64,000 bases of DNA, from the NCBI GenBank assembly GCA_000004695.1, contig CM000153.2, positions 480,001-544,000 of the forward strand. Reading direction: 5' to 3'. Source of the stretch: Dictyostelium discoideum. Lineage: Eukaryota. A program made the position numbers and the translations under genes. The notes beneath the pieces were generated by a model, which saw nothing but the letters and a program-made list of their open reading frames with translations, did not search any database and had not been told where the DNA came from. Of the stretch, positions 1 to 44,733 are shown piece after piece (the first letter of the stretch is position 1; each line of letters starts with the position of its first letter).

Positions 1-41
1 AAATTATTAAAATTTTTAAAACCTTTTTTTAAAACAAAGCC

Positions 42-364
42 ATGACATCTCAAAATTGGAAAAATTGTTTTAATAAAAAAGCAATTGAGGTTATTGAAAT
101 TCATAGATCTCAGGAAACAATCACTGTTGAAACAGTAAATAATGAAGATAAAATCAAGAATAATATTTCAAAACCCAAAATTAAAGTACATAAAAAACCA
201 ATAATTAAATCAATTTCAAAGTTAAAATTACAACCAAAATTTTCGTAAGTAAAAACATTTTAAATTCTTTTTTTTTTTTTTTTTTTTTCATGAAAAAAAA
301 CATTTTAAATTCTTTTTTTTTTTAATTTTTTTTTATTTATTTTTTTTTTATTATTATTACTATA

Positions 365-397
<33 letters not shown>

Positions 398-401
398 TTT
401 A

Positions 402-439
<38 letters not shown>

Positions 440-496
440 TTATTATTATTTGTATTATTTTTTAATAAAAAAATAATTTAAAAAATTCTAATATTT

Positions 497-543
<47 letters not shown>

Positions 544-2423
544 AAGGAGATACAATGATATTATTGATTATTCAATTGATTTCAATTGTAATAAAAATTA
601 TTTCTTAAAACAAGATAAAGTTAGTGGTAATACTTTTATTCATGTTTTTTGTGAAAAAAGAGAATCAAAAATAAATTTAGAATCTGATATTGAAAATTTA
701 AAATGTTTGGGAAAGGAAACGATTGAAGCAAGGAATAATAATAAGGAAATTGCACTATTTTCAACTTTAAAAAACCAATGCCTTGGTTTAAAAATAATGC
801 ATGAATTAATTTCAAGAAATGTTATGTTCATTGATGATAATGGTAAAGATGAGTTACTAGTAAAATGTTTAGAAGAGGGTAGAGTTGATATGGTGAAATA
901 TTTAATTACCGTTGATATTAATTTGATCTCAAAATTAAAGAGAATATGCCAAATTACCCAATTAAGCCTAGAAACACTTCAATTTGTCGAATTAATTAAT
1001 TCAGAATATGAAAAAATCGTAGAAATTGGTTTAAAATCTGCAGGTAGAGAATACATTAAATTGTTTTTCATTCAATTTATTTTGGGTAATTTTTCAAAAG
1101 AATCAATCATCCAAACAATTGATGAATATAAATTACCACCAATTCCAAAAGAAATTGAAGATTTTTTCTTTGTTTATAATTATCAAATGTGTGACTTTGT
1201 TAAATTAACTGAAATCAAACCACGTTACCTCAATGAAATTTCTAAAATAAATATCTATCCAATTGGTCAAGTCTCCATTGAAAGAAGAAATGAACTCGGT
1301 CGTGGTGGTAATGGTACCGTTTATTCAGGTGTATTAAAAGAGATTGATAGTCAAGGTAATGAAATTTCAATACCAGTTGCAATCAAAATACCAACTCAAT
1401 TCTATAAATCAAAATTGGTTGAAGTATATAAAGAGTTGGCTATTCATCAAAAGATTAATGGTATTTGTGGTCCAAAGTTATTTGGATGCGTAAAGTTAAA
1501 TGTTGGATTTGGTATTATAATTGAAAGATTTGATTGTAGTTTACATGACTATATTCAAAATAATAATATCGATTTCGATTTATTTTTTGAATTGGCTCTT
1601 AAAATGGTTATAACAATTAGAAATCTACACAAATGTCATTTAAATGAAATATTCCATCGTGATATTAAACCACACAACTGGTTAGTATGTATATTATTTT
1701 AATACTTTTTCATTTTTCATTTTAATATTATAATTTAATTTAACTCTTTGTATTTTTATTTATTTATTTTAGGTTAAAAAAACTAAAGATGAATTGGTGG
1801 TCGTTTTATCTGATTTTGGTTTATCAAGAGAGAATAGTGAAACAAATGAAAATACTCTTCAGAAATATAGAGGAACATCAGTATTTATTCCACCAGAATT
1901 AAATGATAATATCTTATATAATGAAAAATCAGATATATACTCTTTGGGTGTATCATTTATGATGTTGCTTTATAAAGTTGTTTATGGCAAAATGGAAAAC
2001 CCATTTTATGAATTCAAAATTTCAAAAATGGAATACTTCAAAACAGTTGTTGCTTTAGAGAACTTTTTAGTACCAATTGTACCAACATTTTTACCTGATT
2101 CTTTTAAAGAGTTCTTGTTCTCAACAATGAATAGAATCTATACATGTCGTCCAAATTCTGAAGAATGTGTAGAAAGACTCATAACACTAAAGACTGAATA
2201 TGAAAATGATAAAACCAAATGGCAAGTAAATAGTGCTATTATACAAAAAGAAAAATCATTACTCACTGATTCAATAATTTCACAACAATTGAAATTAATG
2301 AACCAAGTTAAAAAATTTGTTCAAGAAAATGATAAATTCGTTTTTTTGAAGAAAACAAAATTATTTTTTTCAGAATCTGAAATTAAACAATATCTTTTGT
2401 CAATAATAAAATGTCAAGAATGA
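42..2423 (+). CDS. Ankyrin-repeat protein kinase (TKL-like), 3 exons: 42..244, 547..1684, 1773..2423 (663 aa)
   Basis: The Gly-loop GRGGNGTVYSG, catalytic loop HRDIKPHNWL and DFGLSRE motifs are present, with ankyrin-like repeats N-terminal to the kinase domain. The donor of intron 1 is GTAAGT at 245 and the acceptor is AG at 545-546, giving phase 2. Intron 2 runs 1685..1772 (GTATGT...TTTTAG) and splits the codon after HNWL. The exon lengths sum to 1992 nt, which is 664 codons. Confidence 0.7.
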
Positions 2424-2874
2424 AAACTTTAAATAAAATTTTTTAAAAAATAAAGAAAAGAATTAATAATTAGATTATTATTGTTTTAATTTTTTTATTT
2501 TTTTTTTTTTTTTTATAATTAACTGTTATCAAATTCTGGTTTTTCAAAATAAAATAATTCTTTCTTTTTATACAATTGCTTTTAATTCATCTATAAATCT
2601 AATTTGTGATCTAGTTGATTCTAGTTTTAAATAGCTAAATTGGTAATCTAAGAAAGTTGATTCTTTATTTTTTTTTATTTTTTTATTGAACACCAAAGTT
2701 ATATCTTTTTTTTATTTTTTGAGTTTTATCTTTTAACTTTTTTTATTTTTTGAATTTCTTTTTTTTGTAATATTTTATATTGGAATGCTAATAATTATGA
2801 ATTACTTCTTTAAAATATTTTAAAGAAGAGCAATATTTTATTTTATTATTATTATTATATTAATTATTTTTTTT

Positions 2875-3700
2875 ATTATTTGATGAGCAAGCCACATCAT
2901 TGTTATTATTATTACTAATATTATTATTATTGGTTTTATTATTATTTGATGAGCAAGCTACATCATTGTTTTTATTATTACTAATTATTATTATTGATTT
3001 TATTATTATTATTTGATGAGCAAGCAACATCACCGATAGTATTATTGTTGTTATTATTACTACTATTAATATTATTGGTTTTATTATTATTAATTGATGA
3101 ACGAGCTAAATCATTATTGGTTTTATTATTATTTGATGAGCAAGCTACATCATTTTTATTATTATTACTAATATTATTATTATTATTGATTTTATTATTA
3201 TTTGATGAGCAAGCTACATCTTTGTTATTATTATTACTAATATTATTATTATTGATTTTATTATTATTTGACGAGCAAGCTACATCATTGTTTTTATTAT
3301 TACTAATATTATTATTATTGATTTTATTATTATTTGATGAGCAAGCAACATCATTGTTATTATTATTACTAATATTATTATTATTGGTTTTATTATTAAT
3401 TGATGAGCAAGCTACATTATTGTTATTATTATTACTAATATTATTATTATTATAATTGGTTTTATTATTATTTGATGAGCAAGCTACATCATTGTTATTA
3501 TTATTACTAATATTATTATTATTGATTTTATTATTTGATGAAAAAGCAACATCGCCGATAGTATTATTGTTGTTATTATTACTATTAATGATAGTGTTAC
3601 TGTTACTATCACTACTATTATTAATTGATGAACAAGCTAAATCATTGTTGTTATTATTTTTATTTTTGGAATTTCTATTTCTAAGGTTATTATTTTTTGG
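2875..3700 (-). repeat. Coding minisatellite of about 12 copies of a roughly 66-bp unit encoding DVACSSNNNKINNNNISNNNNN; the array continues past the stop codon
   Basis: The core tgatgagcaagctacatc (the reverse complement encodes D-V-A-C-S-S) recurs on the plus strand at about 2882, 2948, 3015, 3096, 3144, 3207, 3270, 3335, 3401, 3475, 3537 and 3627. The stop TAG at 2983..2981 lies inside the array, and two further degenerate copies sit at 2875-2980. Confidence 0.85.
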
Positions 3701-6413
3701 AATTCTTAATGGATCTTCAGCCATTATAATATTGTCATACATATCCAAAAAAATCATTCTTTGATTATTATAAACTTCCCTCGTTTGTAAATATTCATCT
3801 CCTTTTGTAGAATGATTGTTTTCTACATTTTCAATTATTCTTTCCCTTTTAATTGACATAAAGAAACGTTCTGGTATTTTAAAGAAAATAATTAAAAAAA
3901 TAAATAATAGTGGTGCAAAAATTATTGTAACTAATGATATTACAATTTTTTTCCAATCTACTCGAGAACTTTCTTCTTGAGATTTGGTGTTATTGTTGAT
4001 ATATATATATTCTTTTTCTGAAATATTTTGGAATATTAAATTATACCTAGAGATATGAACTATTTGATTTGAAGTGACATTAATTTCAAATGTTGAGTTT
4101 ATTCTAGGTAAAAAGAAATTTAGCAATATATCATTTGCAATTGCACAACCTATTTCTGTTGAAAAACTATATGATATTGTGCATCTTTTCTGGCCATCAA
4201 TTATGAGACTTGTTTTTAGTGGATAAAAATTGAAACCGGATAGAGCTAATACCCAATGGTCCTTTTGATAATTGCTTATTGTGCCAACTTTATTTATTGT
4301 TGGTCCATTAAATGTTATATTAAAACTAATTGATTGATCCATTGAATTAATAATGCATTGTTCAACATGAGGACAAAAGTAATCTTCACTTTGACATGTG
4401 GAATCACATGAAAAAGAAGAATGATTTAAATATGTACAACCAAATTTATAATTACCACATTCAAGAGAAACATTTTGTTTTGAATGAAAATTTTCTCCAT
4501 CTATAAACACTATACTACCATTATTATCAAATGGTTTTGAAATTGCACCCTTAATGGTAGGTTTAATGGTTAATTCATATGGATCAGAAATAATACCACA
4601 ACAACAGATTGTAATTAGGTCACTTGTAAAATATGGTTCCTTTTTGGTTGTAATTTCATTGGAACTTATTTTTATTGGAGAAAGTGATTGGTTCGAGAAT
4701 GTAATAAATGTATTATTATAAAAGCCATAATTGTTAAATTCACCAGTACAGATTATGAATTCATCCTTTGTGTAACATGATTCTATAATTGGTTTTTTAT
4801 AATTAAATGTTGATTGGTATGATTTATTTTCAAAATTTATATTGTAACCTTTTTTACCACAACCTGGCACAATGAAAAACGAATAATCTAAATCATTTGA
4901 ATTTTTACCAATGAGTGTTCCCGTTGATTTAAATTCATCACCAAAATCTGAATAGATTGATAGTATCGGATTTTCTTTATTTTCATCATAACTTGAATTA
5001 AAAAATTTAACAATGCAATTTGATCCATTTACCATTGGTTGAGTAACAAACTTAGTTATGAATGATAAGCCAATAAAATAACTGTTTGATTGTTTTTCAT
5101 AAGATTTCACCGATATATTAATATAGGACATTGCTTCTGGAATGGTGAATGACATAACAGTCTCATTATCATTAATTTGAAGGTTTTGTAAACTAATTGG
5201 GATTTTATCATTAAATATAGTTACTGATCCTACTTCACCAAGACATTGGCCATATATTGTCAAGACACCATTGGAAATACTATAAGATGAAATAAGCGTT
5301 GAGTCATAGTTGAAATATATTTTGTTTTGGTTGGTAATACCATCTATGTTTACGGTAACTGGTAAGTTGTTATCTAAAATTCTATGAGCCATATAACAAG
5401 TAATATTATTTGGTGAAAGTGTAATAATTGAACATGGGTAATCTCCTATTTTAACCTCTGCTATAATAATTGAAGAATTCGATGTTAATCTTTCTCCATT
5501 GATATTAATTGTAGCATTTTTGTTTCTTGGAATACTATTAATTGAATTTAATACTGGAGGATATACTAAATCCATTTTATTTGAAGGTACTTTACTTGCA
5601 ATTAATTGAATTGTAAATGAAGTACAAAAGAATTCTGAATATTCAAAAATAAATTCAATATATTCATGATCATTTTTAATAATTTGTTCATTTTTAATTT
5701 TTTGATTGTTGATTAAAATTTCTTTTGGATACATTTCAGTACAGAAATTAGAGCCAATTAGTGTCACAGTTTTTTTATTTATTTCTACTTTTTCTATATA
5801 TGGATTTTGGTATGATGAATTATAAACAAACGAAAGACCAAAAATTTTAAAAAATCCACAACCACTTGGAAAAATCATTAAATATTCAGAACCGTTTTTT
5901 CCATTTGGAGATATCAAAAAATCGATTTTTTCATAATCATTTTGGAAAAGAGCGTTCTGATTTGTTGTTAATAAAAAATATGTAATATTGGATTGAAAAC
6001 TACCTCCTTTAGTTTCTGGTTTTAATTCTGGTTCAAAAATTGGTAAGATATTTGAAAAAATCCCTGGAAACTGTATACCATCTGCTGTTTTTTTTTCAGT
6101 TTGTTCACTTCCGAAAGCATGAAATTTAAAATTGTTATCAGTAGTTAAATTACACATCCTTAAATCACCATCAATATTACAATTGTAGTTGTATTCAAAA
6201 ATATCTACATTTTTTTCTTTGAATATATATTTGGAAATGTAAGATTCATTTACTTGATAAAAAAGTGTAATATATTCTTTATCTATTATATCTGTAAAAA
6301 AAATTTAAAATTAATATTTTACTTTTAATATTGATTAATCTAATTAATTACATACTCTCAAGAATTGAATATACTATTGTTATTAATAAAATTATTAACA
6401 AATAATATTTCAT
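2981..6413 (-). CDS. TgrB-like IPT/TIG-domain single-pass membrane protein (pair 1): exon 1 6356..6413 (signal peptide), exon 2 2981..6291; about 1122 aa
   Basis: The protein carries the signal peptide MKYYLLIILLITIVYSILE, followed by a phase-1 intron 6292..6355 (GTATGT donor). The ectodomain contains TIG-like motifs (FEPELKPETKGG, IPRNKNATININGERLTSNSS). The transmembrane segment is ISLVTIIFAPLLFIFLIIFF, and the cytoplasmic tail is built from DVACSS/poly-N repeats. It is a paralog of the gene at 38010-41263 and is divergently oriented to the TgrC-like gene at 7136. The family assignment comes from sequence resemblance to Dictyostelium Tgr (IPT/TIG) proteins. Confidence 0.75.
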
Positions 6414-7135
<722 letters not shown>

Positions 7136-9776
7136 ATGAAAATAATTTTAATTTCTTTACTTTTTTATTTATTTTCATTTGCTATTTCTTATGATGATGT
7201 CATTCCTTTGGGTAAATTGTTTTTATCATTTTTTTCATATCTCTTTTTTTTAATTTATTAATTATTTATTAATTATTTTTTTAGGTTATGAAAGTCACAA
7301 TGATTCTCTTGTGATTAGATATCGTGAAAGAGAAAATTATTATACAAATATTTCATTTTTATGGAATGGTAAAAGTCGTTATGATATGAGTTTTAATTGT
7401 GTTTTAAATAATACAATTAGAACTTGTACTTTACCAGTGAAAGAATCTGATCATGCCCAAATGTATTCAGAGAAAATATCTGCATGTACAGAAAATAATG
7501 GTACTTTTAAAAGGTGTGGTTATGATGTTGAGTTATTTTATTTTCCAAGTCCATTTTTAATTTCAGAGTTTAAACCAAAAACACGAGGTGGAAATACAAC
7601 ATTAAGTGGTTATTATTTAGAGTTAAAAGAAAGAATTTATGTTCCATTTGAAAGTCACTATAAAGATGATCAGTTTTATTATGCTGTAGAAGTATATACA
7701 ATTCCAGGTAAGTTTCAATCAAAAACACCAGATAGAATAAATTTAGTTTTAAAAGTTTTTCCAGGTTGTGGATACAGAACAATTATTTGGGAGAATCGTG
7801 AAAGATTAAATTTTACATATCAAGAGCCAAACATTGAAAAAATTGATATTAATCAATCATTTCTTGATATAACTGGTACAAATTTCTACAATCAATCAAT
7901 TTTGGTTTCTGTTAAAATTGATAATAATATTATTGATCCAAATGATATTATTTCAGTTGATTTTGAAATTATTAAATTAAAATTTAATTATTCAGATCCA
8001 TTCTCATCAAAATTGAATGTTCAAGTCGGTTGTTGTGATTATTGGTCAAATCAATTTCAAATTACATATCCACCAATTCCAATAAGTTCAAATAGTATTC
8101 CAAAATTAAAAGGTGGTTTATTAATAATCAATGGTAATAGATTAACTTCATCACCATCATTATCTAATAATATTAATATTTCAGTAACAGTTGGTGATTC
8201 AATTTGTTCAATTGTTTCGTCATCTTCAAATGAAATTAAATGTAATTTACAACCAATATCAAATTCAACATTTAATAATTCATCACCAATTGCTGTATCA
8301 ATAAATGGGGTTGTAAATACAAATACATTATTATTAAATTATGATATTCCATATATTACAACATTCTCTCAAGTAAATGATGAAATTCATATAATTGGTG
8401 GTTGTTTTGGTAATATTAATTCAACTCAAATTCATATCAATGATAAACAAGTTTCTGGCCAAATTAAATCAATTAATAATGATGAAACAATTTTAATATT
8501 AAAAATACAAAATCAAATTTATAATTTCAATCTTTCAATCGAATCAAATTCAATCAAATCAAATGGAATCAATGTAGATGTAAAATTGTATGCAAGTATA
8601 AATGAAATTCCATTGGTTGCTAATAAATTAATTAATTTTACATTATTTTATGTAAATTCAAGTAATATTAATTTAATACCAACAATTAAAATAATTAATG
8701 AAAAATCAAATCAAACAAGTAAATCAATTTCAACCAATGTAAATGAAAGTGTTGTATCATGTTCATTTTTAATTGAAAATAATTGTGGTATTATTAATTA
8801 TGAAATTGAAATTGGTAATCAAATATATCAATCATCATTTTCATATGAATCACCATTGATTAATAAATGTAATTTAAATTCAAATGAAATTGTTACTTGT
8901 ATTTGTAAAGGTTTTGTAAATAAATATAATGAAACAAGTATTTTTATTTCAAATCAATCAATAGCCCTTAGTAAAGAAATTAATAATAGTAGTTATGAAT
9001 CAATATCATTTCAAATGAAAGATGAGTATAATATTCTTGGTGAATTGTATTTAAATGTATGTGGTTTATTATCAAATAAAGTAATTATTAATACATTTCC
9101 AATTTTTAAAAATGTATCGATTCCTAACTTGTTTGGTACAAATGGTGGTAATATCATTATTATTGGTAAATATTTAAATAATAATACAAATATTACAATT
9201 GAATGTAATGGTGAACAAATTATTATAGAAAAAGAATGTAAATTAAAAAATAGTAGTACATCATTAGAATGCAACATTAATTTAAATGGTCCAAATGATA
9301 AAACTTGTAAATTATTATTTAATAATGATAATAGTATAGTATCAACATTTAATTTAATATACAAATCACCATCAATTAATCAAACCAGTATAATTAATTT
9401 AAAACAAGGAGGTATTTTAACAATTATTGGTAATGATTTCTATTATCCAATTGATAAAGTTACAATAATTGGTAATGGTAATGGTAGTGGTAATAGTAGT
9501 AGTTTAAATTGTAATGAAGCAAAGTATATTAATGATACAATTATAACATGTTTTATTCAAGCAACTAATTATACATTTAATAATATTAAAAATGGTGAAA
9601 TGATATTTATCAATGTTTCAACCAATGGTAAAAGTGGTATATCAAAAGTATTCAAATATTTAACTCAATCTGATGATATCCATCAATACTCTGATGCTAG
9701 AAATATCTTTCAAAATCTATTATTATCAATTTTAATCATATTAATCATTTCATTATTATTCATTTCAAATCTTTAA
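7136..9776 (+). CDS. TgrC-like IPT/TIG-domain cell-surface protein (pair 1): exons 7136..7211, 7285..9776 (855 aa)
   Basis: The signal peptide is MKIILISLLFYLFSFAIS, and a phase-1 intron follows it (GTAAAT donor at 7212, TTTTTAG acceptor ending at 7284). The ectodomain has FPSPFLISEFKPKTRGGNTTLSGYYLEL and IPKLKGGLLIINGNRLTSS motifs and many N-glycosylation sequons. The protein ends in the hydrophobic stretch LLLSILIILIISLLFISNL with no cytoplasmic tail, so it may be either GPI-anchored or a transmembrane protein. Confidence 0.75.
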
Positions 9777-9845
9777 AAAAAAACCATAAATTAATAAATA
9801 AATACATTAATAGTTTAAAAATTTTTTTTTTTTTTATTTATAATT

Positions 9846-9881
<36 letters not shown>

Positions 9882-10973
9882 GTATTTGGAAATTCGATTA
9901 ATCCACTTAATAGATTGTTCGTTATTTATTTTTATCATTCGTTGTATTTTCGGATAGTGACCAGGTGGATGAATGGCAAAAAAGCACGACAATAAACAGA
10001 AATTTATAACTCTTTAATGATCATTTTCAAAACTATCAGATGCCCAGACTACAGCTTTTATTCTCGTGATTAATCAACAAAGTTATCAATACATTCTTTA
10101 ATTTCATCAATAAGTGATTTGGAAAACTTAATTTGTTTTCTTTTTTGGTTTACTCATATCTTTTTAATTTGATTATTTTGATTAATTTATGGTGAATTTG
10201 TCAATAATTTTGTTTATTATTGTTTCTGTTGCACCTAAGAACAAAAGTACAATTTATTGTGGGTAGTGATGATGATATTGTTGCAAATTAAATTTAGCAT
10301 AAAAAATATTAAATAATTTTTTCTCTAATACTTTCTTTTAAATTATTATTATTATCATTATTTATTGTTGTGGGGAATTTTTACAGCAAAATACACTATG
10401 TATAGGTAGTGAAAAAATTCATTAAAAATTTTTTTTTTTTTAATATTAAAAACTATTAATTTAACCAAAACAATAAAAAACTATTTATAAACAGTTATCC
10501 AATTGTTTTAAGATTAAATAACAATTTACTTTCAAATTTGCGCCAAAATTTTTTTTAACACTTTAATGATGAAATTTTTACATCCAACCACCCTCAAAAA
10601 ATATTGTATAATTATGATTTTTTTTTTTTAAATAGGAAAATTACCCATTCATTTTATTATGTGAGAAAAAGGGGTTTATTTTTTATTTTATTTAAAAGAT
10701 TTAAATATATGATATATACACATCCAACAATCAACAACCAGCAATATATATATAAATGGCAGATATTATCGTGCCAGTTTTTTAATTGTTTTTATTTTGT
10801 TTTCATAATTGAAGCATTAAAAAAAAAAAAAAAAAAAAATATATTTACAAAAAGGGATTTTTTTTTTTTTTCAGAATTCATTAGGTTCCTCAAATAAATT
10901 AATTTCTAAAATGTTATTCAGTATGTATTATTAAAATAAATAAATAATAAATGAACTATATAAACTAATAAAC

Positions 10974-11013
<40 letters not shown>

Positions 11014-11930
11014 ATTTAGAATCATTACAATCAATCTCAAGGGTTAGCTCAGTCCAAAAGAATCACATTTTGAAATTTTAAAAAAAAAAATTAAAGAGTT
11101 TGAAATAAGTTTATTTTGAGAAAAATGTGGTGTTTTTTTTTTAAAAAAAATATATTATTATCTAATATTTTAAATTTTCAAGGAATTTTATTTAATTCTA
11201 TTTTTAATTATTCATTATTATTTAAAATAATTTTTAAAACAAAAACAAATAGAATTATATTTAATTCTATTTTTAATTATTATTATTATTTTTTTATTTT
11301 TATTTTTTTATTTTTATTTTTTTTATTTTTATTTTTTTATTTTTTTTTGGTTATCATATTATTCAAACCACTAAAAGTTCTTTCAATATCAATAGTTGAT
11401 TGTGACAATCAAACAGATCTTTTGAAGTTCACAATTCTTTAGGTAAAAAGCCTTTTTTTTTTTTTTTTTTTTCTTTCTTTGACCAATTCATTAATTACAA
11501 TTTTATTATTTGATTTATTTAATTTTTAATACTTATATATTTGAAATTGGATATTAAAAAAAAAAAAAAAAAAAAAAAGTAAAATTTAAACGTTTGAACA
11601 GAAAATAAATTAAGATCAAAATTAATAAATTAAAGTAAAAGTTTTTTTTTTTTTTTTATGAATAATTATTTTTAATTATTGGTATGAAATTACAATAGCA
11701 ATAATTAACTTAATTATTAATTGTTTAAAGATTTTATTTATTATTTAAAATAATTTATTAAAAGTTTTATTCTTTGTTTATCGATTAAAAGATATATTGT
11801 TGTTGCTTAATTAATTATTTGTGAAAATTTTAAGTTGATTGTGTGGTAGTATTGATAAATTGTATAATGAAATATTAATATTTTAATATTGGTGATTATT
11901 TATTGATCTGTAACAATAGGTGGAAATTCT

Positions 11931-15564
<3,634 letters not shown>

Positions 15565-15899
15565 CTTTTAGTGATACGTAAAAAATTATTATTATAATTA
15601 ATTTTTTTTATTTTAAGAAATCTTTATATTTAATTTGTATTTATTTGTGTTTTTTATTTTTTTTTTTTATTTAATCTAATCTTTATGTATATTTTTTTTT
15701 TAATGTTTTTTTTTTTATTGGTATTTTTATTTTTATTTTTTTTTTTTGTTTTTATTCAATTTATTTTCTAAATTTATTATTTATTTATTTAAATTTATTT
15801 ATTTTTCAATTAATCCCAAACACCCAAACATGTCCTCATAAAAAAAAAAAAAATAAATAAAACAAAAGGAATTCTAGAAAAAAATAAAAAAAAAATAAA

Positions 15900-16430
15900 T
15901 TAAAAAATACACAATCACTACATTATTGTTATTTTGCACTTCGACACACTTGCACAATTTCTTAAAAAAAAAAACTAAAATTAAAAAAAAAAAACAAATA
16001 ATTAATTGCACTACTCAACCATATCATAGTGCAATTTTATTAAATTTTTTTTAAAAAAAAAAAAAGGTGAATAGAAAAAAAAAAAATACATCAAATTGGA
16101 AATGGAAAAAAAAAGAAATATAAAAATTAACACAAATACCACTACATTATATTTTTTTTTTTTTCTTACATCAACACACTTGAAAAATTATTTTTAAAAA
16201 AATGAATAAATAAAACACAACCACTATGATATAATTATGTGGGCGTAGATTTTGAGTGTATATATATAAAAATATAAAAAAAAAATTAAAAATTAAAAAA
16301 AAAATAAATGCACACATTAAATACGAAAACGGAAAAAAAAAAAAAATCACACAATCACCACTCTATTTTTGCACTTCACACACTTTTTAAAAATACACAA
16401 CCACCACCACAATATATAATTATAAAGTAA
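15900..16430. repeat. Three degenerate copies of a roughly 60-bp CA-rich element (ACACAATCAC..TTTTGCACTTC(G)ACACACTT)
   Basis: The copies lie at about 15908-15965, 16130-16200 and 16346-16425. They sit in the 1.6-kb intergenic region between the 5' end of the kinase gene at 15564 (minus strand) and the oxidase gene starting at 17204. Confidence 0.45.
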
Positions 16431-17203
16431 AAAAAAAAAAAGAATAAATTTATTTTTGTTTGTTTATTATAATTATTATTATTATTATTTTTATTTTTAT
16501 TATTATTATTATTTTTTTATTTTTTTATTTTTTTTTTTGTTTTTATTTATTTTTCAAACACCCAGATTATCTATAAATGGATAAAACCAATAATTGTATT
16601 TGTGTTATGTTGACAAAACTGCAGTACCTACCCCAAACCAAAAAAAAAAAAAAAAAAAAAAAAAAAATTCTCACATAGTTCAACATAACACTCTGCAAAT
16701 CTTGAGAAGTATATAAAAAAATAAAATAAAAATAAAAATAGTGGTTGTTCAATGTGATATGACGATGGTGGACAATTAAAAAAAAAAAAAAATTAAAAAA
16801 AAAATTAAAAAAAAAAAAAGTTTTTTTTTTTGAATATTTTTTGTTTTCCATTTTATGGTTTTGTTTTGCGAAATTCAGCTTTTTTAAAAAATGTTTTATA
16901 AAAACAATCAATGACAATAAATATTAATTTAAATAAATAATCTCACCCAACACTTTAAATAATATTTTTTTTTTTTTTTTTTTTTTAAATAAATTTTTTC
17001 ACAGGTTCAAATTTTTTTTTGTTTTTTTTTTTTTTCAATAAATTTTTTTAATCATTATTTCAAAAATGTGATTCTTTTTTTTTTTATTAAAATCTCAATG
17101 AAACGACATATAAAAAAATTGATATATTTTTTTTTTTTTTTTTTTTTTTTAATTTTTTAAGATTTTTTTTTTATTTTGATGTAAATAACTTTTTTATCAA
17201 AAA

Positions 17204-18607
17204 ATGGAAGAAATAAAAAATGATTACACTTTTGTAGATGAATCAGATAAAAAAGATCAAAAAATAAATTTTAAAAACTTTAGAAAAAGAATTCAAGGTC
17301 AAACATTTATGAAAGATGATTTGGAATATGATAAGATTTGTAATGAAAGGTGGGATCTTAATTCAACGAATTCTCCAATAATTATTGTAAAAGCAATTAA
17401 TGAAAATGATGTTGAAGAAACTATTAAATTTGTTAGAGATAATAAAAAATTAAAATTAGTTATTAAGAATACAGGTCATAATAATATATCAGCAATTGAT
17501 GGCTGTGATGGTGTATCGTTAGATATTAGTTTAATGAAATCAATATCAGTTGACCAACAAAACCAAACTGTTACAGTTGGTGGTGGTTGCACATTTCATG
17601 ATATTGACCAAGTTACATCTCAATATGGTTTGGCAACTCCGTTAGGTCAAATTTCATCAGTTGGAGTTGGTGGATATAGCACAGGTGGTGGAATAGGTCA
17701 TTTAACAAAATTATATGGTTTATCAAGTGATAATTTATTAGAATGTAAAATTATTACATCAAATGGAGAATCAAAAGTTTGTAATAAACATACAAATTCA
17801 GATTTATTTTGGGTAGTTAGAGGTGCAGGTGGATTTATAGGTGTTATAGTTTCATTTACATTCAAATGTTACCTAATTTCAAATGTAGTTGTTGGATCAT
17901 TTGTTTATAATATTGATGAAACAAATAATAATGCAAAGAATGCATTGGTTGAAGTTGGTAAAAGACATTTAAATTCAACAGATCCATTAGTTTATGTTAT
18001 TAATATTAATGCTGGTTCACCTAACAATGTTTTAATAAAAGTTTTATATTTTTTAGATATTAATACTCCAAATTCATCAATGATTGGTGAATCATTAATT
18101 CAAGATTTCCAAAATTTGACAAAACCAACAACATCTTCAATTTCAATTATTTCATATACAAAATTGCAATGGGAATTTGATGGAATAATTTTACCAGGTA
18201 AATATTATCAAGAGGGACCATTATTAAAATCAACAATTACTTCTGAAGTTGCTGATTTACTTTTACAAGCAATATCAAATCGTAATCAACAAACATTTTC
18301 CTCAATTATCATTACTGAACTTGGAGGTATGGCTAACAAAGTTCATCAAAATGAAAGTGCATTCCCAATTAGAGATTCAACATTTAATATTTTCATCTCC
18401 TCTATAATCTTTACACCATCCTTAGAACAACCTCTAAAAGATTGGACAAAAAATACAATTCATCTCTTAAAGGATCATATTTCTGGTGAATACATTAATA
18501 CAAGTTATTCAACAGATATGAAATTAATTTTCAAAGAAAACTTTGAAAGATTAAAAAAATTAAAAAATCAGTATGATCCAAATAATATATTCCGTTCATT
18601 AAATTAA
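17204..18607 (+). CDS. FAD-linked oxidoreductase, berberine-bridge-enzyme (BBE)-like (467 aa)
   Basis: The FAD-binding PCMH-type region contains LVIKNTGHNNISAIDGCDGVSLDISLM and TVTVGGGCTFHDID. The C-terminal BBE motif is KLKNQYDPNNIFRSLN. It is a single exon. Confidence 0.8.
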   Translation: MEEIKNDYTFVDESDKKDQKINFKNFRKRIQGQTFMKDDLEYDKICNERWDLNSTNSPIIIVKAINENDVEETIKFVRDNKKLKLVIKNTGHNNISAIDGCDGVSLDISLMKSISVDQQNQTVTVGGGCTFHDIDQVTSQYGLATPLGQISSVGVGGYSTGGGIGHLTKLYGLSSDNLLECKIITSNGESKVCNKHTNSDLFWVVRGAGGFIGVIVSFTFKCYLISNVVVGSFVYNIDETNNNAKNALVEVGKRHLNSTDPLVYVININAGSPNNVLIKVLYFLDINTPNSSMIGESLIQDFQNLTKPTTSSISIISYTKLQWEFDGIILPGKYYQEGPLLKSTITSEVADLLLQAISNRNQQTFSSIIITELGGMANKVHQNESAFPIRDSTFNIFISSIIFTPSLEQPLKDWTKNTIHLLKDHISGEYINTSYSTDMKLIFKENFERLKKLKNQYDPNNIFRSLN

Positions 18608-18764
18608 AAATAAATAAATAAATAAATAAAAATAATAATAATTAATTTTTAAAAAATAATAAAGTTGTGATAAAAAAAAAAAAAAAAAAAAATATTATTA
18701 TTATAGTTATAATTAATTTTTTGAAAATTTTATTTATTAAATAATTTTTTAATACATTAAAAAA

Positions 18765-20435
18765 TTAAAGTACAAAAATAATTAAATTAATAACTAGAAT
18801 TGAAATAAAGAGCCAACCAATGGATAGTTTATTTGAAGAACTATTTTCATCCTTTTTAACTACCTTTGGTTCAACAAAATATTGAGCTTCACATGCTGAT
18901 AATTTAGTTTCATTACTACAACGTTCTGGTGTTCTTGGAATTGAAAGGTTTGGAGCTTCAACATCTGATAGGTTAATGGATGCAAAGTATTCTTCAGTAA
19001 GTGTACAATTCAATGTTGAATTTACTAAAGAGTATGCCTCGGAAAGAACTGGGGTATCTAAAAACAATTGAGTCATATTATTAATTAATAACATTAATTG
19101 ATCAATTTTGTTTTGAGTATCTTCACTAATTTTTACACTTGAATCATTCCAAAATTTAAACAATTCTATTCTAATTTGAACTGTATCTAATTTATTAATT
19201 TCAGAAGTAATATTAATAAATTGTTTTCTAGTTTCTTTGAAAAGTGTATAATTATGTTTTTCATTTAAAATAAATTCAAATCTCTTTGCAAATGGATATG
19301 ATCTTTGTTGTCTTGGATAACGTGTTTGAATTGATACACTTGATTTAAATTCACAATGGTATGGATCAATATCTTCAATTTCTTCAGTAAAACATTGACA
19401 GCCCTGTTCAACTGAAGAGGTCACAGCATTGTGAAGTTTCCAGAAAAAGGCGGCAATTGAACGTTTATCATCAGCTCTTACAGTTGAAAGTTTTGCAATT
19501 AAGTCACCACCTGTTCCTCCCATTAATAAATGTTCGATTGGGAAGAAACGAACTGCCTCACTAGAGTAACTATCACGGGCATATCTATCGTTTACTAATA
19601 CTTTTGAAATCATATGTTCTCTACAGAATGGACATGCATGATTTAATGGGAAATAGACCATGAAATTTTTAAACTTTTCAGTTAAACTTGTATAAACAGT
19701 TGTAGTACTATTACCACTACTTTCACATGACGAATCTGAAACTCTTTGAGCAATAATATGGAAAACGGCCCACAATGAACGACCAAGGTATGTTGGGAAG
19801 CCAACTCTCATTTGCTGAGTTTTTGTATAATCACCACCAGTATATTTATCAAGGAATGGAATATATAGACCAGCATCAAAATCTAATCTTCTATTAATGT
19901 TTTCTCTTTGCTTATAAATACTTGTCATATAAGTACCAATCATATACCAAATATCTTGTTTCATTTTATCATTATCAAAGTTTTCTAAAAGATCATCAGA
20001 TACAAATTCGTGGTCCTCTATTTTACTGCCATTAAAGCCACATGAGAAAGCATTCAAAGCGGTTGGTAAAAATACGGAATCCCACCAAGTTGCATTCACT
20101 GGATATGGATCAGGTTGAGCCAATTGATTTACAAATAAACTTCTTAAAGTTGCAACATTTGAATTACATTCAGGATCGAATTGAAGAGCAACATATAGAT
20201 CCAAATAGTTGATTACCATTCCTCTATATTCATTCCATTGGTATGGTCTTCCGCCTTTGATTTTATCATCTTCACACCATTCTCTATCTTTTTGAGCATT
20301 TCTATAGGCAGCAGCTGTAAGAAATTGAAAAGATGCTTTTTGAATCTCTTGTTTTTTTGAAATATCACCAGTATGGAATCCAAAAATTAATTCTACAAAT
20401 AAAATTGTTATAAATATAAATATTAATCTATTCAT
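18765..20435 (-). CDS. Secretory/membrane protein with an Erv1/ALR-type sulfhydryl oxidase domain (556 aa)
   Basis: The N-terminal signal peptide is MNRLIFIFITILFVELIFG. The Erv-like core contains LGRSLWAVFHIIAQR and a CxxC in YFPLNHACPFCREHM. A C-terminal transmembrane segment IGWLFISILVINLIIFVL follows, and no thioredoxin CGHC motif was seen. Confidence 0.5.
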   Translation of the reverse strand: MNRLIFIFITILFVELIFGFHTGDISKKQEIQKASFQFLTAAAYRNAQKDREWCEDDKIKGGRPYQWNEYRGMVINYLDLYVALQFDPECNSNVATLRSLFVNQLAQPDPYPVNATWWDSVFLPTALNAFSCGFNGSKIEDHEFVSDDLLENFDNDKMKQDIWYMIGTYMTSIYKQRENINRRLDFDAGLYIPFLDKYTGGDYTKTQQMRVGFPTYLGRSLWAVFHIIAQRVSDSSCESSGNSTTTVYTSLTEKFKNFMVYFPLNHACPFCREHMISKVLVNDRYARDSYSSEAVRFFPIEHLLMGGTGGDLIAKLSTVRADDKRSIAAFFWKLHNAVTSSVEQGCQCFTEEIEDIDPYHCEFKSSVSIQTRYPRQQRSYPFAKRFEFILNEKHNYTLFKETRKQFINITSEINKLDTVQIRIELFKFWNDSSVKISEDTQNKIDQLMLLINNMTQLFLDTPVLSEAYSLVNSTLNCTLTEEYFASINLSDVEAPNLSIPRTPERCSNETKLSACEAQYFVEPKVVKKDENSSSNKLSIGWLFISILVINLIIFVL

Positions 20436-38009: not shown

Positions 38010-41263
<3,254 letters not shown>

Positions 41264-42107: not shown

Positions 42108-44733
42108 ATGAAAATTATACTATTATTTGTTATTTTTTTTCTAATTTCCAAGATCTTCTCTCAAAATTTAGTCTATCCAATTGGTATGTTTTTATGTTTT
42201 TTATAATTTTTTTTTTTTTTTTTTTTTCCCAATCCTTATTCTTTTTTTATAATTAGGATATGAAACTCATATGGACTCCCTTGTAGTTAAATATAAAGGA
42301 TCTGATATCTATTATACAAATATTTCATTTATTTGGAATCATAAAAGTCGTTATGATATGAGTTTTAATTGTGTTTTAAATGATACAATTAGAATTTGTA
42401 CTTTACCAGTGAAAGAATCTGATCGAGAACAAATGTATTCAGAGGAATTACTTGCATGTACTGCAAGAAATGGTATATTTGTTATGTGTGGTTTTGATGT
42501 ACATTTAGGTTTTTTCCCAAGTCCATTATTAATTTCACCTTTTAAACCAAAGACTAGAGGTGGAAATACAACATTAAGTGGTTATTATTTAGAATTAAAA
42601 GAAAGAGTATTTGTTATATTTGAAAATAATTATGAACAAGATCAATATTATGGATCTAATAATTATTATAGAGTAGTGGGTTATTTTGAAACAAACACAC
42701 CTGATAGAATAAATTTGACATTGAGAGTCTATCCAGGTTGTGGAAATAGAACAATTATTTGGGAAAATGGTGAAACATATAATTTTACATATCAAGATCC
42801 AAATATTGAAAAAATTGATATTAACCAATCAATACTTAATATAACTGGTACAAATTTCTATAATCAATCAGTATTTGTTGCCGTTAAAATTGATAATAAT
42901 ATTATTGATCCAAATGATATTATTTCAGTTGATTTCGAAAATATTAAATTAAAATTTAATTATTCAGATCCATTCTCATCAAAATTAAATGTTCAAGTCG
43001 GTTGTTGTGATTATTGGTCAAATAAATTTCAAATTACATATCCACCAATTCCATCAAGTGTAAATAGTATTCCAAAATTAAAAGGTGGTTTATTAATAAT
43101 CAATGGTAATAGATTAACTTCATCACCATCTTCAAATAATAATAATATATCAGTTACAGTTGGTGATTCAATTTGTTCAATTTTTTCATCATCTTCAAAT
43201 GAAATAAAATGTAATTTACAACCATTATCAAACTCAACATTAAATAATTCATCACCAATCACTGTATCAATTAATGGTGTTGAAAATACAAATAAACTAT
43301 TACTATATTATGATATTCCACACATTAAAACATATTCTCAAGTCAATAATGAAATTCATATAATTGGTAGTTGTTTTGGTAATATTAATTCAACTCACAT
43401 TCAAATCAATGGTAAACAAGCTCAAAATCAAATAAAATCAATTAATAATGATGAAACAGTTTTAATATTAAAAGTACAAAATCAAATTTATAATTTTAAT
43501 ATTTCAATCGAATCAAATTCAATCAATGTAGATGTAAAATTATATGCAATAATTAATGAAATTCCATCGGTTGGTAATAAATTTATTAATTTTACATTAT
43601 TATATGTAAATTCAAGTAATATTAATTCAATAGCAACAATTAAAATATTAAATGAACAATTAAATCAAACAATCCAATCAACTTTAACAACTTTTATTGA
43701 AAGTGTTGTATTATGTTCATTTTTAATTGAAAATCTTTGTGGTATTGTTAATTATGAAATTGAAATTGGTCATCAAAGATTTCAATCATCATTTTCATAT
43801 GAATCACCATTGATTAATAAATGTAATTTAAATTCAAATGAAATTGTTACTTGTATTGGTAAAGGTTTTGTAAATAGTAATGAAACAATTATTATTATTT
43901 CAAATCAATCAATAACATTTAATAATGAAAGTAATAATAATAATGATAAATCAATATCATTTCAAATGAATGAAGAGTATATTCTTGGTGAATTGTATTT
44001 AGATGTATGTGGTTTATTATCAAATAAAGTAAAAATTGATACAATACCAATTTTTAAAAATGTATCGATTCCAAACTTATTCGATACCAATGGTGGAGAA
44101 ATCATTATTTTTGGTAAATATTTAAATAATAATACAAATATTACAATTGAATGTAATAATGAAGTAATAGAAAAAGAATGTAAATCATATAATAGTACAT
44201 CATTAGAATGCAACATTGAATTTAATGGTCCAAATGATAAAACTTGTAAATTATTATTTAATAATATTGATAATAATAATAATAATAATAATATAGTATC
44301 AACATTTAATATTATCTATAAATCACCATCAATTAATCAAACTAGTATAATTAATTTAAAACAAGGAGGTATTTTAACAATTATTGGTAATGATTTCTAT
44401 TATCCAATTGATAAAGTTACAATAATTGGTAATAATGGTAATTGTAGTGGTTGTGATATTTTAAATTGTAATGAAGCAAAGTATATTAATGATACAATGA
44501 TAACATGTTTTATTCAAGCAACGAATAATACATTTAGTAATATTAAAAATGGTGAAATGATATTTATCAATGTTACAACCAATGGTAAAAGTGGTATATC
44601 AAAAGTATTCAAATATTTAACTCAATCTGATGATTCTCATCAATACTCTGACGCAAGAAATATCTTTCAAAATCTATTATTATCAATTTTAATCATATTA
44701 ATCATTTCATTATTATTCATTTCAAATATTTAA
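42108..44733 (+). CDS. TgrC-like IPT/TIG-domain cell-surface protein (pair 2): exons 42108..42183, 42257..44733 (about 850 aa)
   Basis: The signal peptide is MKIILLFVIFFLISKIFSQNLVYPIG, followed by a phase-1 intron 42184..42256 (GTATGT donor, AATTAG acceptor). The protein is roughly 75-80% identical to the 7136-9776 product and shares the same C-terminal hydrophobic end LLLSILIILIISLLFISNI. Confidence 0.75.

Follow-up and report, generated by a model that had tools for sequence, protein, structure and literature searches.

The window analysed here is a stretch of 64,000 nucleotides of Dictyostelium discoideum DNA (GenBank assembly GCA_000004695.1, contig CM000153.2, forward-strand positions 480,001 to 544,000), and positions given without another source refer to it. 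Near its start lies a minus-strand gene of the Tgr family (2981..6413), most likely tgrH1 (DDB_G0283323), whose 3' end is a tandemly repeated coding sequence. The gene is intact and has two exons. Exon 1 (6413-6356), from which a start resembling a signal peptide, MKYYLLIILLITIVYSILE, is read, is followed by a 64-nt GT..AG intron (6355-6292) and a single long exon 2 (6291-2981), giving 3369 nt including the stop and a protein of 1122 amino acids. The annotation of the AX2-214 assembly has a 1122-amino-acid product at the same place, equal in length to our reconstructed model. The repeat array lies within a 1058-codon open reading frame (ORF) at 2981-6157 of the minus strand.

The extracellular part of the protein (ORF residues 1-734) matches the Pfam family PF01833 TIG (E = 3.1e-11, 43.6 bits, cut-off 20.9), and HMMER gave matches to TgrO1-like and IPT/TIG proteins of dictyostelids; the nonorthologous Tgr matches are all 25-34% identical to it. 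A single transmembrane segment of 22 residues, IVISLVTIIFAPLLFIFLIIFF (3881..3946, minus strand), contains the highest 19-residue Kyte–Doolittle window of the protein (3.04), is modelled by AlphaFold as a helix with a predicted local distance difference test score (pLDDT) above 90, and is followed by the basic sequence KIPERFF. As this is the only membrane segment and basic residues follow it, everything 3' of 3881 is expected to be cytoplasmic. The tail begins with a conserved juxtamembrane module, K[IV]P.R[FY]...KGD.YL..R....R..LD[IM]FDN.IM[AS][ED] (3713..3880, minus strand), which tblastn and alignment recovered in a paralog and in four other isolates or species. When the transmembrane segment and tail were modelled from the single sequence with AlphaFold2, the array came out at low confidence (pLDDT 31-62), and we took its predicted beta-strands (pLDDT 50-62) as an artefact of the repeats and not as evidence of a fold. 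No Pfam family was found in the tail alone.

Upstream, a divergent TgrI-type gene (7197..9776, plus strand; AX4 XP_639151.1 / Q54R96, 855 amino acids, by its length tgrI1 or tgrI2) forms a head-to-head pair with the repeat-bearing gene. Its product contains Ig_TgrO1 and TIG domains and shares 91% identity with Tiger protein I3 and 27% with the repeat-bearing protein. Having a dissimilar tgr gene as partner in this orientation is typical of many tgr genes, though not of every one (10.1101/2025.10.22.684067). The repeat-bearing gene thereby shows the hallmarks of the family, with an IPT/TIG ectodomain, a signal-like N terminus and one transmembrane segment (both by sequence inspection), and a head-to-head partner. 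The window contains a second pair of this kind, referred to as pair 2, with XP_639162.1 as its TgrI-type partner. Both TgrI-type proteins end in a hydrophobic stretch, YSDARNIFQNLLLSILIILIISLLFISN plus a final L or I (9680-9776 and 44640-44733, plus strand), with no cytoplasmic residues after it, and these C termini look like glycosylphosphatidylinositol-anchor signals rather than a transmembrane segment with a tail. If so, each pair might consist of an anchored ligand and a receptor bearing a tail.

A preliminary description of the window had called the repeat-bearing protein TgrB-like, an assignment that we do not retain. Two ORFs of the window match AX4 proteins exactly, DDB_G0283305 and methylthioribose-1-phosphate isomerase, both from chromosome 4, whereas tgrB1 (DDB_G0280689) and tgrC1 (DDB_G0280531) belong to the tgrBC locus on chromosome 3 (DDB_G02805xx-02807xx), and the partner in the window is of TgrI type. 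The length and the gene-number neighbourhood point to tgrH1 as the most likely identity: at 3366 nt, tgrH1 has the longest exonic sequence among the tgr genes in a supplementary table, close to the 3369 nt of our model, and its identifier falls between those of tgrI2 (DDB_G0283317) and tgrI1 (DDB_G0283335) (10.1101/2025.10.22.684067).

The array was recovered in two ways. Tandem Repeats Finder scored the segment 2843-3553 at 763, with a period of 66 bp repeated 10.9 times and matches of 79%, and anchoring on the conserved motif divided positions 3643-2860 of the minus strand into 12 head-to-tail units with a modal length of 66 bp (22 codons). Each unit opens with an 18-nt island that codes for DVACSS or for a form differing at one residue, and continues with an Asn-rich spacer. 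Allowing at most one mismatch, the degenerate 18-mer GATGTNGCTTGYTCNTCA has 15 matches in the window and none in 100 shuffles, and all 15 are confined to the 12-unit array or the tail of the pair-2 paralog; the island is GC-richer than its surroundings in a window of 22% GC. Read on the minus strand from their first bases, the in-frame units are unit 1 (3643; DLACSS; 90 nt), unit 2 (3553; DVAFSS; 63 nt), unit 3 (3490; DVACSS; 72 nt), unit 4 (3418; NVACSS; 66 nt), units 5, 6, 7 and 8 (3352, 3286, 3220 and 3151; all DVACSS; 66, 66, 69 and 39 nt), unit 9 (3112; DLARSS; 81 nt) and unit 10 (3031; DVACSS; 67 nt), the last of which contains a TAG. Units 11 (2964; 66 nt) and 12 (2898; extending to a TAA) both encode DVACSS and lie past the stop in the +1 frame.

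As the lengths of units 1-9 are all multiples of three and unit 10 has 67 nt, the array stays in frame up to unit 10. The translated part (2984..3643) contains 10 motif copies and is 48% Asn. Neither the frame of units 1-9 nor the motif, present in all 12 copies, is lost in the alignment. The earlier count of about 12 units with a hexapeptide in an Asn context thus held up, but the hexapeptide is not invariant as had been claimed: DVACSS is exact in 8 of 12 copies, the others being DLACSS, DVAFSS, NVACSS and DLARSS. With head-to-tail units of frame-keeping length and, as described below, a copy number that differs between strains at the locus, the array has the properties of a coding minisatellite. 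On the opposite strand, two ORFs with TTG starts (2994-3455 and 3456-3764, encoding poly-Leu with LLLFDEQATS) are mirror images of the repeat and were rejected as genes.

The units fall into distinct types. A young family (C-type) with 82-97% pairwise identity comprises units 2-7 together with 10 and 11 and is nearest to the unit called C in the D. discoideum isolate GCA_054859385.1. Units 1 and 9 are of another type (A-type, DLA[CR]SS...NTIG) and are 80% identical to each other, and unit 12 is a terminal type matching unit D of the same isolate. The resulting order is A-C(x7, last truncated)-A'-C(frameshifted)-C-D, with A-type units at both ends of the C-type block, and fits an older tail of the form A-B-C-D that was reshaped by slippage or unequal exchange.

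The reading frame ends within the array. The TAG at 2983-2981 lies in unit 10 and is directly followed by three more in-frame stops: this unit reads AAT AAT AAT AAT TAG TAA TAA TAA, where the other C-type units have AAT AAT ATT AGT AAT AAT. At the frameshift site (2981..2986, minus strand), AAT TAG stands in place of AAT ATT AGT, so that the sequence reads AATTAGT and the form with the AT present is AATATTAGT. When AT was put back after 2984 in silico, the unit became the canonical KINNNNISNNKNNDVACSS and the reading frame continued to a longer end, DVACSSNNKKNN and the TAA at 2862-2860. The two untranslated units (2860..2964, minus strand) are intact. Unit 11 is 97% identical to the in-frame unit 4, and unit 12 with the TAA aligns with the sole motif copy and the stop codon of the ortholog in a cryptic sister species (GCA_054859205.1), as well as with unit D of isolate GCA_054859385.1. 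These alignments support the view that the present TAG is secondary, inside a formerly longer coding array, and that the TAA at 2862-2860 would be the ancestral stop.

As the copies beyond the TAG are read in a shifted frame, the stop was caused by a frameshifting indel and not by a base substitution; most simply this was a 2-bp loss of AT, which takes fewer steps than a 1-bp gain. The preliminary description had correctly placed the TAG inside the array with two more units beyond it and had inferred a longer ancestral array, which the AT repair and the TAA alignment bear out, but it attributed the stop to a point change and considered the post-stop units degenerate, and neither of these agrees with the shifted frame and the intact motifs. 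Readthrough of the TAG was rejected as an explanation, given the four consecutive in-frame stops and the different frame of the later copies. We found it extremely unlikely that the frameshift reflects a mistake in sequencing or assembling the reference, even though AT-rich low-complexity repeats are error-prone and the Nanopore-based contigs of isolate GCA_054859385.1 disagree in run lengths in this very region: the segment 2700-3950 is byte-identical in the independent AX2-214 assembly (GCA_054883475.1, Nanopore and Illumina), and the protein annotated there ends at the same TAG. Over 19.8 kb (window 1-19806), the two assemblies differ by five indels and no substitutions, with no indel in the array. 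The new C terminus, DVACSSNNNNKINNNN, is similar to the old one, DVACSSNNKKNN, and for this reason the frameshift may be tolerated.

To place the array in an evolutionary context, we compared the tail among AX4/AX2-214, the D. discoideum isolate GCA_054859385.1, the cryptic sister species GCA_054859205.1, D. citrinum and D. firmibasis. The tgrH1-like gene of AX4 and AX2-214 has 12 motif copies, 10 of them translated. The collinear locus of isolate GCA_054859385.1 (L010; kinase, tgrH-like and tgrI-like genes in the same arrangement) has four (DLACSS, DVACSS, DVACSP and DVACSS), and an adjacent duplicated pair has two. In the cryptic sister species (L005), the gene at the syntenic position has a single copy at its end, NIIMSESNNNNNDVVCSSNN. 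In D. citrinum (L012) there are four irregularly spaced copies (NATCSS, DVACPSS, HEACSS and DVACSSS), and the single copy of D. firmibasis (L008), HSDGNVASSSSL, gives NVASSS at the C terminus with Ser in place of Cys. The DNA alignment with the cryptic sister species jumps from window position 3716 to 2916, which makes its single copy the counterpart of unit 12, untranslated in AX4. The comparison shows the array to be recent in the AX4 lineage and variable between isolates, and the suggestion that it is a source of length polymorphism is borne out by the 12 and 4 copies at collinear loci of D. discoideum.

The peptide is present in five isolates or species and in two paralogs, in which the neighbouring module is 28-50% identical, and it is the only non-Asn island conserved across the tails. 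Such a conserved island within a fast-evolving tail modelled at low confidence, recurring among orthologs and paralogs, is the pattern expected of a short linear motif. The Ser-Ser is unchanged in all copies seen but one (DVACSP of GCA_054859385.1), and position 3 is Ala in all but one Val and one Thr. The Asp, Val and Cys positions vary: D. firmibasis has Ser where the Cys would be, and two AX4 copies have Phe and Arg there. Among 81 retrieved Tgr proteins (TgrB1 not among them), the juxtamembrane module was found in none outside the TgrH-like subfamily, and neither was the motif, save for a possible C-terminal DIASSSS in the protein P0064. That protein, of 649 amino acids and from another Tgr subfamily, ends in TSANDIASSSS, like the C-terminal NVASSSSL of D. 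firmibasis; the likeness could be due to chance or reflect a wider C-terminal motif in Tgr tails. The motif was not found in the published papers that we searched.

The conservation bears on what the island is. A reading of the 18-nt island as a DNA or RNA element, such as a binding site or recombination signal with only incidental coding, would account for its sharp GC-richer outline in a 22% GC background and for the high DNA identity among the AX4 repeats. We give this reading hardly any credence, as the island is always in the peptide-encoding frame where it is translated, the sequence shows no strong inverted repeat, and D. citrinum and D. firmibasis have kept the peptide but not the nucleotides. 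For the same residues, D. citrinum uses GCA, GCG or GCT for Ala, TGT or TGC for Cys, and TCT, TCA or TCC for Ser.

Within the peptide, a function might attach to different residues. One candidate is the Cys, which occurs in 8 of 10 translated AX4 copies and in all four copies of both the pair-2 paralog and D. citrinum, and which could serve as a reiterated S-acylation site pinning the tail to the membrane, as the preliminary description had listed among its suggestions. Acylated Cys residues in single-pass proteins are usually juxtamembrane, and the sites here are 80-300 residues away from the membrane. Among the residues put forward as targets, the Cys is moreover conserved the least, being exchanged for Ser, Phe and Arg as described above, and it is surpassed in conservation by the Ser-Ser, so that we consider S-acylation very unlikely. 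A Ser-Ser-centred phosphorylation or docking site appears more likely. CaaX-type prenylation was rejected, as the Cys is never four residues from any C terminus.

Taken together, we consider it probable that the array is a coding minisatellite in the gene of a type-I Tgr protein, most likely TgrH1, with a TgrI partner, and that it has multiplied an ancestral short linear motif in the cytoplasmic tail of this protein. The comparisons show an older tail with a few copies of [DN]-[VIL]-[AV]-[CS]-S-S in a poly-Asn context, the last of them 2-6 residues from the C terminus. In the lineage of NC4 and AX4, one 66-bp unit type was amplified in tandem, presumably by unequal crossing-over or replication slippage, and a block including the A-type unit was duplicated, giving A-C(x7)-A'-C(fs)-C-D, where fs denotes the frameshift. 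A frameshifting indel in unit 10, most simply the AT loss, created the TAG, so that the protein no longer includes the final two copies. We infer that the peptide is a functional motif under purifying selection, while its copy number would be unconstrained and at most tune the valency of the tail.

Several observations weigh against this reading. A function of the motif is something we infer from sequence, and the gene is assigned to tgrH1 by length and gene-number neighbourhood, not by a sequence match. Reading frames cannot be trusted in the Nanopore-based assemblies: isolate GCA_054859385.1 has another contig, of 6.2 kb, that is 97.6% identical to the first and has the same four copies, but the lengths of homopolymers and AAT runs differ across the tail. 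The ancestral tail may have had one copy or about four. Selection on single copies seems weak, as 3 of 10 translated AX4 copies have a nonsynonymous change (C>F, D>N and C>R), and the frameshift loss of two copies has been tolerated. Expression is very low: for tgrH1, strain QS33 sampled at 9 h yielded a single direct-RNA read (6.3 counts per million), and during AX4 development the expression of most tgr genes is low or below detection. The family appears to be in birth-and-death turnover, given that sister genes in the cluster are frameshifted or truncated.

The low expression, the tolerated frameshift, the damaged copies and the decayed neighbouring paralogs, together with the richness of D. 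discoideum in coding simple repeats (10.1101/2025.10.22.684067), also favour an alternative in which low-complexity sequence has expanded neutrally in a decaying gene with hardly any expression, DVACSS being functionless, carried along by slippage, and alike between genes through recent common ancestry or gene conversion. We nevertheless regard neutral expansion as unlikely. The motif is kept in D. citrinum despite synonymous codon differences and at the C terminus of D. firmibasis as NVASSS, the AX4 paralog retains it beside a module only 40% identical, and no other non-Asn island is conserved in these tails.

The reading of a multiplied functional motif can be extended, though we consider the extension quite unlikely: the tail may act as a "sticker-and-spacer" scaffold in which [DN]V[AV][CS]SS stickers, separated by poly-Asn spacers, would recruit kinases or adaptors multivalently or cluster receptors upon TgrH1–TgrI contact. 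If true, the instability of the minisatellite would produce strain-specific signalling gain, a second tunable axis beside ectodomain polymorphism. A protein kinase gene (707-2423, plus strand; Pfam Pkinase / PK_Tyr_Ser-Thr in the AX2 annotation) stands tail-to-tail beside the repeat-bearing gene and would be a candidate partner under the scaffold reading. The kinase gene is kept nearby in the cryptic sister species (L005 13016-15301), in isolate GCA_054859385.1 (L010 1691-6378) and in D. citrinum (L012 14054-16259); in D. firmibasis, none was seen within 10 kb.

The second pair of the window illustrates the fate of related genes. The tail of the pair-2 paralog (38010..38640, minus strand) has four DVACSS copies (at 38522, 38315, 38243 and 38171), a duplicated IMADQQL(R/K)L.NRNKKNL module and long poly-Asn, in agreement with what the preliminary description had stated about it; its juxtamembrane module is the one that is only 40% identical to that of pair 1. 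Pure (AAT)n runs at 38020-38150 and 38400-38500, coding for 33-38 consecutive Asn, are overlaid on the motif repeats. The gene as a whole (38010-41160, minus strand) is frameshifted near 40011-40095, where one frame ends in NEFLTLFW and a stop at ~40090 and the sequence continues in another frame with CFGKEDSFTIYN. The AX4 protein model P0052 corresponds to its 368-amino-acid N-terminal part and stops at the frameshift. Given this upstream frameshift, the tail with its DVACSS copies (38154-38522) is probably not made and the gene is probably a pseudogene. In the cryptic sister species, the ortholog of the pair-2 gene (L007 12195-12300) ends in NSNNNDV and a stop, with the frame breaking in the middle of the motif and the sequence switching to a (TTG)n-rich stretch of an opposite-strand gene, as if a rearrangement had its breakpoint within the motif.

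Another member of the cluster is likewise reduced. The partner of TgrI3 in AX2-214 (L013 7658-9248) is a 449-amino-acid TgrH-like fragment, with ~90% identity to the ORF of the window over the latter's residues 96-561, which stops before the transmembrane segment and is thus without membrane segment and tail. Locus L011 of GCA_054859355.1 has three TgrI-type genes and no partner gene. In isolate GCA_054859385.1 (L010 5817-18412), there are extra tandem TgrH-like/TgrI-like pairs relative to AX4, and the genes shared with AX4 show 9-13% DNA difference, compared with an average of 0.3% quoted for close D. discoideum strains. Because of the extra pairs and this divergence, the tgrH/I cluster of chromosome 4 seems as dynamic as the tgrBC locus. 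To our knowledge, functions are known only for TgrB1 and TgrC1 among the ~60 tgr genes. The TgrA, TgrH, TgrI and TgrO groups are among the fastest duplicating, and their function is unknown (PMC12745789).

A conserved motif in TgrH tails provides a concrete handle on whether TgrH proteins signal, in an unstudied subfamily. The locus is also a cautionary case in two respects: a coding minisatellite can shift the stop codon, with "coding" copies persisting undamaged in the 3' untranslated region, and tail length in the Tgr family is not reliably readable from Nanopore-only assemblies. The value of the finding is limited by the very low expression of tgrH1 and by the commonness of coding repeats in the D. 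discoideum genome.

The array is an object of a familiar kind, a coding variable number tandem repeat (VNTR) located in the intracellular part of a receptor, and coding repeats abound in this genome. Exon 3 of human DRD4 has a 48-bp coding VNTR in which an in-frame tandem unit likewise repeats a short peptide; the segment is intracellular and probably disordered, and the copy number is polymorphic. Unlike that VNTR, the TgrH1-like array has its own derived stop, intact copies in the 3' untranslated region and poly-Asn spacers, and it is known from sequence alone. The EPIYA segments of Helicobacter pylori CagA and the immunoreceptor tyrosine-based activation motifs of CD3-zeta are repeated motifs with proven kinases and binding partners, resembling the tail described here in that a short modification or docking motif is repeated and its copy number varies by repeat recombination; [DN]V[AV][CS]SS is a putative motif of this sort. 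Yeast FLO adhesins share the setting of a surface adhesion or recognition family with rapid recombinational change in repeat number, but their intragenic tandem repeats are extracellular and directly alter adhesion, whereas the TgrH1-like repeats are cytoplasmic. The poly-Asn and poly-Gln repeats of D. discoideum itself are also Asn-rich (48% Asn in the array) and AT-rich, and change by slippage or unequal exchange in a repeat-rich genome (10.1101/2025.10.22.684067), but the unit here is a 66-bp minisatellite with a conserved non-Asn island and not a trinucleotide run. Finally, the allorecognition receptor TgrB1 of D. discoideum, encoded by the tgrB1-tgrC1 pair, is like the TgrH1-like protein a type-I Tgr protein with an IPT/TIG ectodomain and a head-to-head partner, and its cytoplasmic domain signals, as the activating L846F allele is located there (PMC12142906). 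It differs in belonging to another subfamily, in being encoded on chromosome 3 with a TgrC partner rather than on chromosome 4 with a TgrI-type partner, and in its exonic length of 2703 nt against the 3366-3369 nt of the repeat-bearing gene.

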